A stretch of DNA of 5,629 nt, taken from IMG/VR virus record IMGVR_UViG_2541047846_000004; one strand, written 5' to 3'. The stretch comes from a virus. Lineage: Duplodnaviria > Heunggongvirae > Uroviricota > Caudoviricetes. Below are positions 1 to 5,629 of the stretch, piece after piece; the stretch's first letter is position 1, and the number at the start of each line of letters is the position of its first letter. The notes beneath the pieces are model-generated. The model ran no database searches, was not told the DNA's origin, and was given only the letters and a program-made list of their open reading frames with translations. A program made the position numbers and the translations under genes.

Positions 1-2929
<2,929 letters not shown>

Positions 2930-2947
2930 ATTTTATAACCCAGATAC

Positions 2948-2976
2948 GGGCGCCAGAAATGGCGCCTTTTTTATTT
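2948..2976 (+). terminator. Putative rho-independent terminator hairpin between J and stf
   Basis: GGCGCC (2949..2954) and GGCGCC (2961..2966) are self-complementary and form a 6-bp GC stem (a possible G-U pair extends it to 7) around the 6-nt loop AGAAAT. The stem is followed immediately by TTTTTTATTT (2967..2976). It sits 19 nt after the J stop codon. Confidence 0.6.
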
Positions 2977-2981
2977 GTGGA
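2977..2981 (+). promoter_or_regulatory. Shine-Dalgarno sequence for the stf-like gene
   Basis: GGAG lies within GTGGAGTGAATATG, 6 nt upstream of ATG 2988. Confidence 0.5.
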
Positions 2982-2987
2982 GTGAAT

Positions 2988-5048
2988 ATGGCAGTACAGA
3001 TTTCAGGCGTGCTGAAAGACGGTGCAGGAAAACCGATACAGAACTGCACCATTCAGCTCAAAGCAAAACGTAACAGCACCACGGTTGTGGTGAACACGGT
3101 GGCCTCAGAAAATCCGGATGAAGCCGGACGTTACAGCATGGATGTCGAGTATGGCCAGTACAGCGTTATCCTGCTGGTTGAAGGTTTTCCGCCTTCACAT
3201 GCCGGGGCCATCACCGTGTATGAGGATTCTAAGCCGGGGACATTGAATGATTTTCTGGGCGCTGCAACAGAAGATGATGTTCGTCCGGAGGCACTGTATC
3301 GTTTTGAAAAGATGGTGGAAGAGGTGGCACGCAACGCTGAAGCCGCCTCTCAGAGCGCAGCGGCAGCAAAGAAATCAGAAACAGCAGCGGCATCGTCCAG
3401 GAATGCGGCGAAAACATCAGAGACGAATGCAGGTAACAGCGCGAAAGCGGCAGCTTCTTCAAAAACAGCCGCACAAAACGCAGCAACAGCGGCAGAACGT
3501 TCAGAGACAAATGCCCGTGCGTCAGAAGAAGCCTCCGCAGACAGTGAAGAGGCTTCCCGCCGTAATGCAGAGTCAGCCGCTGAAAATGCCGGAGTCGCCA
3601 CCACAAAAGCGCGGGAGGCCGCAGCAGACGCAACAAAGGCCGGGCAGAAAAAGGATGAGGCTCTGTCGGCAGCGACACGGGCTGAAAAGGCGGCAGACCG
3701 CGCAGAAGTCGCAGCGGAAGTGACTGCAGAGCCCTATGCGAATATAGTGCCGCCGCTGCCTGATGTGTGGATACCGTTTAACGATTCACTGGATATGATT
3801 GCGGGTTTTTCTCCGGGCTATAAAAAAATAGCTATTGGTGACGATGTGGTTCAGGTCGCCAGTGATAAACAGGTTAATTTCAGTCGCGCATCAACGGCAA
3901 CATATATCAACAAATCTGGCGAACTGAAAACGGCGGAAATTAATGAGCCGCGATTTGAGTGTGATGGCCTGCTTATTGAGGGACAAAGAACGAACTACAT
4001 GCTCAATTCGGAAAGTCCAGCCAGCTGGGGGAAGTCATCAAACATGGATGTGCCCGAAACCGGGACAGATAGTTTTGGTTTTACTTATGGAAAGTTTGTC
4101 TGCAACGATTCTCTGGTTGGGCAAACTTCGGCTATTAATATGGCATCAATTGCTGCAACAAAGTCAGTTGATGTCTCAGGCGATAACAAGTACGTGACAA
4201 CCTCATGCCGTTTTAAAACAGAACGACAGGTAAGGTTACGTATACGGTTTGATAAGTATGATGGTAGTGCAACAACTTTTCTTGGCGATGCGTACATTGA
4301 TACGCAAACGCTTGAAATTAATATGACAGGTGGGGCTGCCGGCAGAATTACGGCACGAGTCAGGAAGGATAAGACCACAGGCTGGATTTTTGCAGAGGCA
4401 ACGATTCAGGCAATTGATGGTGAGTTAAAAATAGGCTCTCAGATACAGTATTCTCCTGAGCGGGGTGGGGCAACAGTATCTGGTGACTATATTTATCTTG
4501 CCACCCCACAAGTAGAGAATGGGCCGTGTGTATCATCATTTATTATTTCAGGAGGCAGCGCAACGACAAGAGCCAGTGATTTGGTTAGTATCCCCACCAG
4601 AAATAATCTTTATAAGTTACCATTTACTTTTTTACTTGAGATTCATAAAAACTGGGATATTGCACCAAACGCCGCACCCCGCGTGTGGGATATAGCAGCA
4701 GCCAATACCGGGCAATCAGCAATTGCAGCAATCAACAGAGGTAGTGGTAAGTTATATATGAGTCTGTCAAACCCTTCAGGCTTGTATGTTAATAGCGCAG
4801 CGACAGATGTATTTGCAGAGAAAACCACATTTGGATGTATTGCAAAAGCTGATGGTCACTTTCATGTGGTGACAAATGGTAAAGCGGTTAATGAAGTTTA
4901 TTGTGAATATAATGGTGTGACCGCTGATAAAAATATCCGATTTGGAGGGCAGACGAATACTGGAGAACGACATCTGTTTGGCCATATTCGCAATTTCCGC
5001 ATATGGCATAAAGAATTAAATGACAGGCAATTAAAAGAGGTCGTATGA
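2988..5048 (+). CDS. stf: Side tail fibre protein (Stf-like): lambda-Stf-type N-terminal attachment domain, Ala/Ser-rich stalk, divergent C-terminal lectin-like (LamG-type) receptor-binding domain
   Basis: The N-terminus MAVQISGVLKDGAGKPIQNCTIQLKAKRNSTTVVVNT.ASENPDEAGRYSMDVEYGQYSVILLVEGFPPSHAGAITVYEDSKPGTLNDFL is near-identical to my recollection of lambda Stf (MAVKISGVLKDG...). The ORF track starts at GTG 2982, but ATG 2988 matches the homologue start and has a GGAG Shine-Dalgarno. The C-terminal end (...NIRFGGQTNTGERHLFGHIRNFRIWHKELNDRQLKEV) resembles the terminal strand motif of concanavalin-A-like / LamG jelly-roll domains. Stop is TGA 5046..5048. Confidence 0.85.
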   Translation: MAVQISGVLKDGAGKPIQNCTIQLKAKRNSTTVVVNTVASENPDEAGRYSMDVEYGQYSVILLVEGFPPSHAGAITVYEDSKPGTLNDFLGAATEDDVRPEALYRFEKMVEEVARNAEAASQSAAAAKKSETAAASSRNAAKTSETNAGNSAKAAASSKTAAQNAATAAERSETNARASEEASADSEEASRRNAESAAENAGVATTKAREAAADATKAGQKKDEALSAATRAEKAADRAEVAAEVTAEPYANIVPPLPDVWIPFNDSLDMIAGFSPGYKKIAIGDDVVQVASDKQVNFSRASTATYINKSGELKTAEINEPRFECDGLLIEGQRTNYMLNSESPASWGKSSNMDVPETGTDSFGFTYGKFVCNDSLVGQTSAINMASIAATKSVDVSGDNKYVTTSCRFKTERQVRLRIRFDKYDGSATTFLGDAYIDTQTLEINMTGGAAGRITARVRKDKTTGWIFAEATIQAIDGELKIGSQIQYSPERGGATVSGDYIYLATPQVENGPCVSSFIISGGSATTRASDLVSIPTRNNLYKLPFTFLLEIHKNWDIAPNAAPRVWDIAAANTGQSAIAAINRGSGKLYMSLSNPSGLYVNSAATDVFAEKTTFGCIAKADGHFHVVTNGKAVNEVYCEYNGVTADKNIRFGGQTNTGERHLFGHIRNFRIWHKELNDRQLKEVV
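3340..3720 (+). repeat. Low-complexity Ala/Ser/Thr/Glu-rich repeat region encoding the fibre stalk (coiled-coil-like)
   Basis: The protein segment ASQSAAAAKKSETAAASSRNAAKTSETNAGNSAKAAASSKTAAQNAATAAERSETNARASEEAS... contains recurring SETNA / AAKxSE motifs. The DNA is GCN-codon rich and produces spurious long ORFs in other frames and on the minus strand (3247..3723 +, 3229..3678 -, 3350..3604 -). Confidence 0.6.
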
Positions 5049-5323
5049 AAGATTTAACTTTGAAGTTTCATGACAAACTGCAGTTTAAGGCCTTCCTGTC
5101 ATCTCTTGACTGGGAGGAGGATGAAGACCTCCAGAATAAACTGTTAGTCGATGAAATTGGTTTCACCTACACAGAAACAGGGGTAACAGAAGAGGGAGAA
5201 CCTGTCTGTGTCCGGAATGACGGTTATTTTGTCAACATTCGCATTCTTGATGACTTGTTTGATGTTTCTGTATTCTCTGATTATGTCGTGGAGCTGGAAA
5301 CACCGCTTCGGGAATGGAGCTGA
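5045..5323 (+). CDS. Hypothetical small acidic protein (92 aa), translationally coupled to stf; function unknown (candidate fibre-associated accessory or chaperone)
   Basis: Its ATG 5045..5047 overlaps the stf stop TGA 5046..5048 (ATGA overlap), and GAGG 5037..5040 precedes it. The product is strongly acidic (D/E-rich: ...DWEEDEDLQNKLLVDEIGFTYTETGVTEEGEP...). It shares the AT-rich composition of the stf C-terminal domain. I do not recognise the family. Confidence 0.6.
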   Translation: MKDLTLKFHDKLQFKAFLSSLDWEEDEDLQNKLLVDEIGFTYTETGVTEEGEPVCVRNDGYFVNIRILDDLFDVSVFSDYVVELETPLREWS

Positions 5324-5330
5324 AAGGAGG
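5324..5330 (+). promoter_or_regulatory. Strong Shine-Dalgarno sequence (AAGGAGG) for the downstream membrane-protein ORF
   Basis: AAGGAGG at 5324..5330, 5 nt upstream of ATG 5336. Confidence 0.7.
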
Positions 5331-5335
5331 AAATA

Positions 5336-5629
5336 ATGGATATAAGCCCCTTACTTCATGCGCTTTGTGCTGTGGCTGCGCAGATACTGGTTGGTCTTTT
5401 TACCGGAAACTGGGCTTACGGAGCGATAGCCGGTTGTACGTTCTTCATTGCGCGTGAACATACCCAGGCAGAATATCGCTGGATTGAAATGTTCGGGCAT
5501 GGCAAGCGAATGAATATGCCGTGGTGGGGCGGTTTTGATCCGCGAGCTTGGGATGTGGCAAGCCTGATGGATTTTGCTGTGCCGGTGGTGGCGTGTCTGC
5601 TGGTCTGGCTGTTGGTTAATCGTGGGTGA
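5336..5629 (+). CDS. Hypothetical small membrane protein (97 aa, 2-3 predicted transmembrane helices); function unknown
   Basis: ATG 5336 follows a canonical AAGGAGG Shine-Dalgarno, and the ORF ends at TGA 5627..5629, the window edge. Hydrophobic segments are LLHALCAVAAQILVGLFTGNWAYGAIAGCTFFIA and VASLMDFAVPVVACLLVWLLV, with a Trp/Gly/Pro-rich loop (MPWWGGFDPRAW) between them. GC content looks host-like, unlike the preceding AT-rich block. Confidence 0.6.
   Translation: MDISPLLHALCAVAAQILVGLFTGNWAYGAIAGCTFFIAREHTQAEYRWIEMFGHGKRMNMPWWGGFDPRAWDVASLMDFAVPVVACLLVWLLVNRG

Follow-up and report, generated by a model that had tools for sequence, protein, structure and literature searches.

The AT-rich part of the 5,629-nt window (the whole stretch of DNA analysed here) encodes the receptor-binding end of the phage 21 side tail fibre, an exchangeable piece, together with a small linked gene. 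We consider it highly probable that this region is a distal Stf receptor-binding cassette with a translationally coupled 92-aa gene, exchanged in a mosaic way at conserved joints and written in AT-biased codons. This is ordinary, well-supported shuffling of tail-fibre modules between phages; the exchange of tail-fibre tips is textbook knowledge, the locus comes from a published phage, and existing knowledge is left unchanged. The value of the analysis lies in the precise map of a widely shared cassette, with its fixed left joint (3753-3797), its hypervariable core (4692-4940) and its conserved right arm composed of the fibre C-terminus and the small gene, called here orf92. Such a map could guide host-range engineering by swaps at natural joints, and the strictly linked orf92 is flagged as a worthwhile target.

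Identity and gene organisation of the locus

The window corresponds to the J-stf end of the lambdoid phage 21 tail operon, either in the phage itself or in its prophage form, as found in B2 E. coli. Identity with Escherichia phage 21 is 100% across 2189-5629, and prophages adjoining sitABCD in ExPEC strains are ~99% identical to the window. The gene order J, stf, 92-aa gene, 97-aa membrane protein gene (orf97) and sitDCBA is common to phage 21 (OL657228, side tail fibre locus CPT_21_22 to CPT_21_24) and to phage-21-like Jouyvirus prophages of ExPEC E. coli. In the window, in phage 21 and in the prophage of ATCC 11775 alike, the tail operon is lambda-like and has stf 3' of J. The phage 21 genome announcement is silent on the fibre. 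All the features located below are on the + strand.

Gene J (19..2929), which encodes the central tail fibre or host specificity protein, is matched by NF049904 (lambda_TipJ) and by the Pfam families Ig_J, Phage_Tail_Tip and Ig_GpJ_C. An apparent tandem duplication of 724 nt (440-1163, repeated at 1164-1887) breaks it into two ORFs, 19-1164 and 1106-2929. The duplication is missing from J of phage 21 and was not seen in any of 5,426 complete E. coli genomes. Between J and stf, a terminator-like hairpin followed by a T run (2948..2967) coincides with a terminator annotated in the J-stf gap of OL657228 (locus 4700-4727, corresponding to ~2949-2976 of the window). Apart from this hairpin, promoter- and terminator-like sites over 2900-5629 occur at chance level, and an Rfam scan of the whole window returned no family.

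According to the phage 21 annotation, stf extends from 2988 to 5048; in the ORF list it starts at a GTG codon at 2982, and fibre residue numbers are counted from that position. The N-terminal collar (attachment) domain (2988..3380) is matched by PF08400 over aa 3-133 (E = 9.8e-69; 230 bits for a cut-off of 26.6), which places the protein among the lambdoid Stf fibres, and the profile of the fibre alignment matches PDB 9e7m, 'Tail fiber protein' (E = 5.6e-35). By homology, this collar docks on the tail, the function of the domain being described in the cryo-EM structure of Ur-lambda (PMC12617516). It is followed by an Ala/Ser/Glu-rich stalk (3314..3752), presumed to be a trimeric coiled coil by analogy with the Stf of Ur-lambda.

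The left joint of the module

The module starts at a junction motif of 15 residues, PLPDVWIPFNDSLDM (aa 258-272; 3753..3797), which is the left joint of the mobile unit. This motif is invariant in eight fibres with five N-terminal types (PF08400, Drexler-type, T5-type, PF12571 and PF03406), and the N-termini joined to it are of at least five unrelated kinds; for P0161, the fibre of PF03406 type, the look-up returned no contig entry. At the DNA level, the motif corresponds to a conserved block of ~50 nt (3753-3800), and the alignment shows its coding DNA to be ~90% conserved even in a T5-like phage. In BLAST comparisons, the first similar position is 3745 for tunus, 3752 for VogelGryff, 3753 for VSe12, 3726 for 2G7b and 3747 for a P2-like prophage; for Drexlerviridae, Seuratvirus, T5-like and P2-like phages, DNA similarity sets in at 3745-3753.

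The sequence-only reading had suggested the Ala/Ser stalk repeats as the recombination joint, a role that the comparisons assign instead to PLPDVWIPFNDSLDM. As a substrate for the module swap, the stalk repeats would account for the Stf genes of other lambdoid phages (Stx2-1717, PhiR70_1), whose similarity to the window ends within the stalk (3340, 3378 and 3514) where they pass into unrelated distal modules, for the difference of ~100 residues in stalk length in 2G7b, and for the peptide repeat AKTSETNA, which Drexler-type and T5-like fibres also have in their stalks. However, Tandem Repeats Finder detected no tandem DNA repeat at 3250-3800, where only degenerate repeats of 15-28 nt occur. 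Moreover, the fibres with P2-type (PF12571) and PF03406-type N-termini have no Ala/Ser stalk, yet are joined at exactly the same motif, and in 1H12, which carries the closest alternative allele, the crossover is at ~3810, downstream of the stalk. We therefore regard the swap through stalk repeats as unlikely. The stalk breaks at 3340-3514 are a second, separate joint leading into unrelated distal modules, and the motif remains the left joint of the cassette.

Base composition and codon usage

GC content is 0.623 at 1-900, 0.492 at 1651-2929 (the C-terminal third of J), 0.514 at 2982-3300 (the start of stf), 0.576 at 3301-3750 (stalk), 0.435 at 3750-5330 and 0.531 at 5336-5629. Expressed by feature, it is 43% at 3753-5323, 59% in the Ala-rich stalk before it and ~49-51% in the non-stalk neighbours, defined as the C-terminal third of J plus the stf N-terminus. 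A change-point analysis, performed with the 724-nt duplicate removed and compared with codon-shuffle permutations, found three change-points overall (897, 3313 and 3776). The strongest one, at 897 (GC 0.625 to 0.481; LLR 61.5), is the largest GC step of the window and falls inside J (1621 in the second copy); GC then rises from 0.49 to 0.59 at 3313 and falls from 0.59 to 0.445 at 3776 (LLR 18.0, p ~0.01).

These values bear on the sequence-only reading, in which a GC-rich J and stf start were followed by a sharp drop near 3750 and by a return to intermediate composition after 5330. Its hand counts were right (61.7% GC at 601-660 and 40.0% at 4201-4260), a compositional step near 3750 is present, and the return to 0.53 after 5330 is real (two-proportion z ~3 at this pre-specified boundary). 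Richness in GC holds for the first part of J but not for its last 1.3 kb nor for the stf N-terminus, which are already at 49-51%. The drop itself is real but less sharp and less unique than described, the 15-point step coming mostly from the Ala/Glu/Ser-rich stalk; the step appears sharp because the preceding stalk has GC-rich Ala codons.

Compared with its non-stalk neighbours, the module is ~6 GC points lower, and the difference is due entirely to synonymous codon choice: its amino-acid content predicts a GC content of 0.491, and 0.434 is observed (z = -7.7). This significant shift towards AT makes up the remainder of the step at 3750, beyond the share due to the stalk. The codon-choice score is z = -5.1 in segment 4692-4940 and only -1.9 in orf92; in the same test the stalk and orf97 do not differ from the neighbours. 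The module is thus unlike its flanks in both composition and codon usage. The low GC reflects AT-biased synonymous codons that are shown by every cassette allele in every host phage. Indeed, module GC is 0.39-0.45 across all hosts, for backbones of 0.40-0.61, and the P2-like backbone repeats the trough, with 0.61 upstream and 0.45 in the module.

Two other interpretations of this composition have to be weighed. The step could be an effect of protein composition only, produced by an Ala-rich coiled coil (GCN codons) lying beside a beta-rich domain with no separate history. The stalk lends itself to this interpretation, since its GC comes from amino-acid content rather than codon choice: GC2 reaches up to 0.72, and the amino-acid effect is +10.7 GC points, or ~70% (~11 points) of the 15-point step at 3750, for a codon effect of -1.3 (z = -1.0). 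At the boundary GC1 drops by 18 points and GC2 by 17, but GC3 by only 8. The module nevertheless lies well below the GC content that its amino acids predict, and five other phage backbones have independent mosaic joints at 3745-3753, which show a separate history; the codon-choice test and the comparative joints both count against the protein-composition effect, which is largely refuted and, in our estimation, very improbable. It is possible, although less likely than not, that the cassette has long resided in lambdoid and enterobacterial phages and that its AT-richness is kept locally (for example by relaxed codon selection or diversifying selection in a late gene that is seldom limiting) rather than being the signature of an import from a lower-GC source. 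In agreement with such a history, all alleles are equally AT-rich, including the alternative one of 1H12 (0.43), the most variable segment is also the most AT-rich, and the module does not exceed backbone GC even in low-GC virulent phages (0.417 vs 0.447 in tunus, 0.409 vs 0.432 in VogelGryff and 0.390 vs 0.396 in VSe12). Long residence leaves unexplained, however, why the boundary in composition and codon usage coincides with the mosaic joint in the lambdoid and P2-like backbones. It is compatible with the mosaic exchange of an AT-biased cassette, which we prefer, and does not exclude it.

Domain architecture and variability of the cassette

The fibre part of the module comprises four segments, whose pairwise identities were computed over 48 unique modules. 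Segment A (3753..4001) is a conserved proximal part with a mean pairwise identity of 0.82. Segment B (4002..4691) is allelically variable (0.49) and resembles the head spike fibre of RcGTA: NF048003 matches aa 331-531 with 55.3 bits, above the curated NCBIfam cut-off of 36, and homology with Rcc01080 (PDB 6TB9; E = 6.5e-10, residues 44-285 of 325) extends over ~245 residues, which together make it a member of the GTA head spike fibre domain. Segment C (4692..4940) is the most variable, with a mean pairwise identity of 0.315 and a minimum of 0.09, and has the lowest GC (0.40) and GC3 (0.27) of the window; DNA similarity is lost at 4693-4941 in 2G7b, tunus, VogelGryff and VSe12. It would make up the core of a putative C-terminal domain of Laminin_G_3-like (ConA-like) type, PF13385 matching aa 562-683 with 23.9 bits, below the Pfam cut-off of 27.6 (E = 5.1e-5), and being recorded with the mark 'faint' for the close homologues P0130 and P0135. 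This segment is presumed to be the specificity-determining tip. Finally, segment D (4941..5048) comprises the conserved C-terminal strands ending in RHLFGHIRNFRIWHKELNDRQLKEVV (mean pairwise identity 0.73); all of the 86 loci have a motif of this kind at the C-terminus, and DNA similarity is back at 4937-4942 in 1H12, VogelGryff and VSe12. A break at 4915 in phages 4A7, D2 and 1W was rejected as a joint: it is an insertion carrying a transposase gene (IS) at 4908-4915, after which the module resumes. For the module (aa 256-688), AF2 gave a monomer model with a pLDDT of 47, which was unusable.

Capsular polysaccharide is what the head spike fibre of RcGTA binds (PMC10218006), and O-antigen is thought to be the primary receptor of the lateral fibres in the siphovirus groups that share the cassette (PMC8594841). 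Since the module resembles the capsule-binding fibre of RcGTA, it probably binds a surface glycan. Under the explanation that we propose, the fibre would be built of a tail-docking collar, an Ala-rich coiled-coil stalk and a cassette starting at PLPDVWIPFNDSLDM, the latter composed of the conserved proximal part, the RcGTA-like domain and a Laminin_G_3-like, lectin-like tip with a hypervariable core; its primary, reversible receptor would most likely be a surface polysaccharide (O-antigen, LPS or capsule).

The small linked gene orf92

Directly 3' of the fibre gene, orf92 (5045..5323) encodes a small acidic alpha/beta protein of 92 aa (phrog_1361), and its start overlaps the stf stop (ATGA). 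It directly follows a fibre gene with the same type of C-terminus at 86/86 loci, and in addition at the P2-like locus. Its identity tracks that of the last 35 fibre residues (r = 0.71), with correlations of 0.21 for segment B and 0.33 for segment C, and the correlation with the fibre C-terminus could reflect mere physical adjacency on one recombination block. The protein does not belong to the tail fibre assembly chaperone families Caudo_TAP/Tfa or gp38-type, nor to the intramolecular S74 chaperones; no informative relative in sequence or fold was found, and a PDB sequence search returned nothing. An exhaustive profile search gave 82 matches, among which the long multi-stretch ones are PKD- or TPR-repeat proteins and were discarded as spurious. 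Neither the cassette nor a small linked gene is mentioned in the paper on the DT57C structure or in a receptor-prediction preprint of 2026.

The function of orf92 is the step of our argument that we hold least firmly. Most likely, it would be a conserved fibre accessory, namely an assembly factor, or else a distal subunit recognising the conserved strands at the fibre C-terminus, and we do not expect it to act as a specificity determinant. It could instead be an unrelated passenger gene (moron) that happens to lie beside the fibre gene, which would fit the absence of homologues among known chaperones and structural families and the lack of co-variation with the specificity region. We find this improbable given its strict adjacency and start/stop overlap at the 86 loci, in temperate and virulent siphoviruses and myoviruses alike, and given that strictly virulent phages, in which lysogeny-related morons are unexpected, keep the gene. 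Extending the accessory role, one may speculate that orf92 founds an undescribed class of fibre accessories, unrelated to Tfa, gp38, gp57A and the intramolecular chaperones, that serves all fibres with a lectin-like tip, and that it forms with the PLPDVWIPFNDSLDM block paired 'recombination arms' moving one hypervariable receptor-binding cassette between temperate and virulent phages, siphoviruses and myoviruses; we offer this broader scheme as a conjecture whose odds we put well below even.

Exchange between phages

The same segment is found with a shared left boundary (3726-3753) in five backbones, belonging to four unrelated lineages and to the P2-like prophage. Whole or in part, the cassette matches prophages in 1,714 of the 5,426 complete E. 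coli genomes, and it is present in several virulent phage families; about 150 phages have matches. The region 3750-5330, which had been described as horizontally acquired, thus acts as an exchangeable unit, but a foreign origin, or acquisition in any particular direction, does not follow. Every allele is AT-rich in every host phage, and identity above 95% occurs only among lambdoid phages, falling to 87.8% in the P2-like prophage and to at most ~82% in the virulent phages. No identity above 90% across lineages and no identifiable donor were found, and the temperate-virulent identity of at most ~82% therefore gives no sign of a recent acquisition by phage 21.

The right boundaries of the shared DNA are more diverse, being located at 4692, 4937-4942, 5324/5325 or at least 5618. 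In 30-nt bins over 3571-5400, the close relative 1H12 is ~97-100% identical to the window up to ~3810 and again from ~5100, and is unalignable in between. Within the genus of phage 21, the replaced piece accordingly covers ~3811-5100 with one crossover inside orf92, and the unit is not monolithic. The earlier proposal that the small gene is swapped with the module is borne out by the linkage at 86/86 loci but not by 1H12, where the swap ends within the gene (~5100). The edge at 5324/5325 is a mosaic joint too. Beyond it, orf97 (5336..5629), a small predicted membrane protein of intermediate GC (phrog_1443), is a mosaic piece in its own right that at times accompanies the module: it moves with it in the P2-like prophage (similarity over 3747-5618 at the 87.8% given above), and in 2G7b it stands after a second fibre gene, with similarity starting at 5325.

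As the crossover positions suggest, exchange is probably the result of homologous recombination within conserved blocks on either side of the variable part. The left arm would be the motif block, and the right arm the conserved fibre C-terminus plus orf92. Shared DNA and protein show that the cassette circulates among temperate siphoviruses, P2-like myoviruses, virulent Drexlerviridae, Queuovirinae and T5-like phages.

Comparison with known systems

Classical tail-fibre mosaicism is represented by lambda Stf/Tfa, P2 H/G, Mu S/U and T4 gp37/gp38. As in these systems, the distal fibre and a downstream small gene are common to unrelated temperate and virulent phages, and a lineage-specific N-terminus is combined with an exchangeable C-terminus. 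Unlike the classical cases (referred to in PMC3945230), the present one involves another module family: PF03406 repeats and a Caudo_TAP (PF02413) chaperone are absent from stf, orf92 and orf97, and no invertase lies nearby. The likeness in sequence of segment B to Rcc01080, or GhsB, is accompanied by a difference in location, since the RcGTA domain is carried on the capsid whereas here it is carried on a tail side fibre, with a conserved junction segment before it and a lectin-like tip after it.

The lateral fibres of Drexlerviridae, Queuovirinae and Markadamsvirinae from the BASEL collection contain the same cassette (64-79% DNA identity over 3745-4692) followed by the same 92-aa gene; within each family only the far 5' end of the lateral fibre genes is conserved (PMC8594841). 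In these phages, the 92-aa gene is usually followed by another fibre gene (two-protein fibres), whereas phage 21 has the small membrane protein there. In the P2-like prophage, the cassette replaces the usual C-terminus of H, and a 74-aa Caudo_TAP remnant is left.

Identity and gene content of the region

The whole window is matched, at ~99% identity, by lambdoid prophages of B2/ExPEC E. coli, in whose genomes tail genes flank the region on one side and the sitDCBA operon on the other. Among the phages of the collection, Escherichia phage 21 (OL657228, genus Jouyvirus) matches best, with 100% identity over 3750-5330 and 99.5% over 1881-3749; compared base by base, the two show zero mismatches from 2189 to the window end, and all mismatches lie within J (the central tail fibre / host specificity gene), at 642-2188. 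J is split in the window by a 724-nt tandem duplication whose copies (440-1163 and 1164-1887) differ at 3 positions (462, 483 and 1011). Since 724 cannot be divided by 3, a TAG arises at the junction (1162-1164), leaving J as two ORFs, 19-1164 and 1106-2929. The duplication is absent from phage 21 and from the matched E. coli prophages (matched span 4905 = 5629 - 724), and none of 5,426 complete E. coli genomes contains its junction sequence; the two explanations are a defective prophage and an assembly chimera.

J is followed by the side tail fibre gene stf (2988-5048 in the phage 21 annotation, with an alternative GTG start at 2982 in the ORF listing, from which Stf residues are counted here), by orf92, a 92-aa ORF (5045-5323), and by orf97, a 97-aa membrane-protein ORF (5336-5629). 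In the prophage of the E. coli type strain ATCC 11775, stf is called a truncated pseudogene 'missing C-terminus' by RefSeq (prophage locus 8264-8627, equal to window 2988-3351) and the next ~1.7 kb are left unannotated; the ORF is intact and its protein identical to the Stf of the window, and the call looks like an annotation artefact.

Stf begins with a PF08400 collar domain (aa 3-133, E = 9.8e-69), and a profile of the fibre alignment matches the 94-residue 'Tail fiber protein' chain of PDB 9e7m (E = 5.6e-35). In Ur-lambda, Stf residues 1-91 make up a collar at the tail tip, and a linker and a trimeric coiled coil come next (PMC12617516); by analogy, the Ala/Ser/Glu-rich stretch at aa ~112-257 would be an equivalent stalk. 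The distal part contains NCBIfam NF048003 'phage head spike fiber domain' (aa 331-531, 55.3 bits, cut-off 36) and also matches the solved head spike fibre Rcc01080 (6TB9, E = 6.5e-10) of the Rhodobacter gene transfer agent RcGTA; that spike fibre binds capsular polysaccharide (PMC10218006). A Laminin_G_3 match in the last ~125 residues is sub-threshold (23.9 bits vs 27.6), and the AF2 model of distal Stf (pLDDT 47) is too poor for use.

Base composition and codon choice

GC content is 0.623 in 1-900, 0.492 in 1651-2929, 0.514 in 2982-3300, 0.576 in 3301-3750, 0.435 in 3750-5330 and 0.531 in 5336-5629. The hand counts of the sequence-only reading (61.7% and 40.0% in two samples) were right, and its description of J and the start of stf as GC-rich fits the first part of J but not 1651-2929 or 2982-3300. 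With the duplicated J copy taken out, change-points were searched recursively and compared with codon-shuffle permutations, which placed boundaries at 897 (0.625 to 0.48, LLR 61.5, strongest by far), 3313 (0.49 to 0.59) and 3776 (0.59 to 0.445, LLR 18, p ~0.01). The step reported near 3750 is real, but the window's main compositional boundary lies elsewhere. The biggest step is inside J (~897, with its counterpart at 1621 in the second copy), where the Ig-like middle domains give way to the C-terminal tip-fibre / receptor-binding part; GC3 falls there from 0.74 to 0.56, which hints at a further boundary, both compositional and mosaic, inside that gene.

Amino-acid and codon-choice effects were separated with the C-terminal third of J and the stf collar as reference codon usage. 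The stalk (3314-3752) gains 10.7 GC points from its amino acids and does not differ in codon choice (z = -1.0); the module, i.e. the AT-rich distal part of stf (3753-5045), has an observed GC of 0.434 vs 0.491 predicted from its amino acids (z = -7.7), with the strongest internal codon shift in 4692-4940 (z = -5.1). The shift is marginal in orf92 (z = -1.9) and orf97 is not different (z = -0.95). The Ala codons of the stalk thus account for about 70% of the 15-point step at 3750; the other ~6 GC points come from a real shift of synonymous codon choice towards AT, limited to the distal fibre part. The sharpness and uniqueness first attributed to this boundary were overstated.

Joints, transfer and age of the module

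Joints were mapped by BLASTN of the window against the loci of relatives, which belong to Drexlerviridae, Seuratvirus, T5-like phages, Nesevirus and a P2-like prophage. Similarity covers 3745-4692 in tunus (Drexlerviridae, 79%), 3752-4692 in VogelGryff (Seuratvirus, 72%, plus 4942-5169), 3753-4692 in VSe12 (T5-like, 64%, plus 4942-5057), 3726-4692 in 2G7b (Nesevirus, lambdoid, 82%, resuming from 5325) and 3747-5618 in the P2-like prophage (87.8%, in a single piece). In a protein alignment of eight fibres, homology starts at the invariant motif PLPDVWIPFNDSLDM (aa 258-272, nt 3753-3797), whose DNA is ~90% conserved even in the T5-like phage, and five kinds of N-terminus stand upstream of it: PF08400 collar, Drexler-type, T5 LtfA/pb1-type, P2-type PF12571 and PF03406 repeats. 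The P2-like prophage shows a GC trough (0.61 upstream, 0.45 in the module, 0.42 in orf92, 0.52 in orf97). These joints, common to several phages, argue strongly for a transferable unit whose left edge, at 3747-3753, is where the first reading had placed it; distal fibre part and small gene behave as an exchangeable block beginning right after the stalk, as had been proposed.

The stalk repeats had also been proposed as the recombination joint. Two other lambdoid stf genes, those of Stx2-1717 and PhiR70_1, have only the collar in common with the window; similarity ends at 3340-3514, within the stalk, beyond which each runs on into an unrelated distal module (in one case collagen-like repeats, in the other a different, long C-terminus), so that exchange also takes place in the stalk region, as a second zone. 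The AT-rich module does not need the stalk as a joint: P2-type and PF03406-type fibres have no stalk and are still joined at the same motif, and Tandem Repeats Finder detected no repeats in 3250-3800, where only short degenerate ones occur. The joint of this module is the conserved junction motif, not the stalk repeats.

As for a 'foreign' origin, the module has a GC content of 0.39-0.45 in every host, on backbones from 0.40 (T5-like) to 0.61 (P2-like), and the alternative allele of 1H12 is as AT-rich as that of the window. Identity exceeds 95% among lambdoid phages only, the best virulent-phage match being ~82%. Such data show an old, shared cassette family that is intrinsically AT-rich, but not a recent import into phage 21 from an identifiable donor; foreignness was overstated. 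In line with this, De Paepe et al. saw no recent mosaics between temperate and virulent E. coli phages and noted ancient stf gene sharing (PMC3945230), and in the BASEL papers lateral-fibre loci are conserved at the far 5' end only, with O-antigen as the presumed target (PMC8594841). The original observation is partly confirmed, its interpretation being right in its core and wrong on mechanism, and the locus is a clean yet ordinary case of tail-fibre modularity in a known phage.

Internal structure of the cassette

For the 48 unique combinations of module and orf92 found in 86 loci, mean pairwise identity is 0.82 at aa 258-340, 0.49 at aa 341-570, 0.315 (minimum 0.09) at aa 571-653, 0.73 at aa 654-688 and 0.64 in orf92. 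Against the close relative 1H12 (same genus, same flanks), identity in 30-nt bins over 3571-5400 is ~97-100% to ~3810, the sequences are unalignable through ~4950, and after a gradual recovery identity is ~97-100% from ~5100. By this profile, the latest swap in this lineage spans ~3811-5100, with crossovers just past the motif block and ~55 nt into orf92.

A break at 4915 in 4A7, D2 and 1W was rejected as a recombination joint, being a three-ORF transposase-gene (IS) insertion at 4908-4915. An IS3-family or ISEc52 transposase gene lies within the matched J-stf region of several E. coli genomes, and an IS4 one within the J/stf match of the lambda-like phage Lambda_4B5; stf has been struck repeatedly by insertion sequences in relatives.

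orf92, orf97 and downstream genes

No relatives of orf92 were found in Pfam, NCBIfam or PDB, and it belongs to phrog_1361, a family of unknown function. After their fibre gene, tunus, VogelGryff, VSe12 and 2G7b each carry a homologue (49-54% identity). The stop of the upstream ORF overlaps the orf92 start in 65 of 80 IMG/VR loci and abuts it in the other 15, and all upstream ORFs (86/86) share a C-terminus of the type HLFGH.RN[FL]R.W; the window itself has an ATGA overlap, and the Shine-Dalgarno sequence AAGAGG lies 5 nt ahead of it. Identity of orf92 correlates with that of the last 35 fibre residues (r = 0.71) and not with that of the variable segments (r = 0.21 and 0.33), and 162 pairs combine an orf92 at least 90% identical with a tip less than 50% identical. 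By this pattern orf92, itself conserved, is a companion of the conserved C-terminal end of the fibre rather than a partner in specificity; adjacency alone could produce the correlation. As the weakest step, we infer that orf92 may be an assembly factor or a distal subunit, and the function of this strictly linked gene is the one point worth following.

A second gene follows the orf92 homologue in 2G7b (locus 6085-7122) and VSe12 (5693-6526), annotated as tail fibre protein, in VogelGryff (5554-6720; putative lateral tail fibre chaperone) and in tunus (5587-6324; hypothetical protein), so that orf92 might connect two fibre proteins within a branched fibre. This extra gene is missing from phage 21.

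orf97 belongs to phrog_1443; the phage 21 annotation makes it a membrane protein that has a signal sequence and 2 transmembrane domains. The gene is a separate mosaic piece. It moves with the module into the P2-like prophage (similarity to 5618); in 2G7b it stands after the second fibre gene and DNA similarity begins exactly at 5325. The gene order in the P2-like prophage is P2 gene I, fibre gene, 92-aa gene, 97-aa gene and a 74-aa Caudo_TAP fragment (locus 6612-6836), which looks like the remnant of a displaced P2 G-type chaperone gene.
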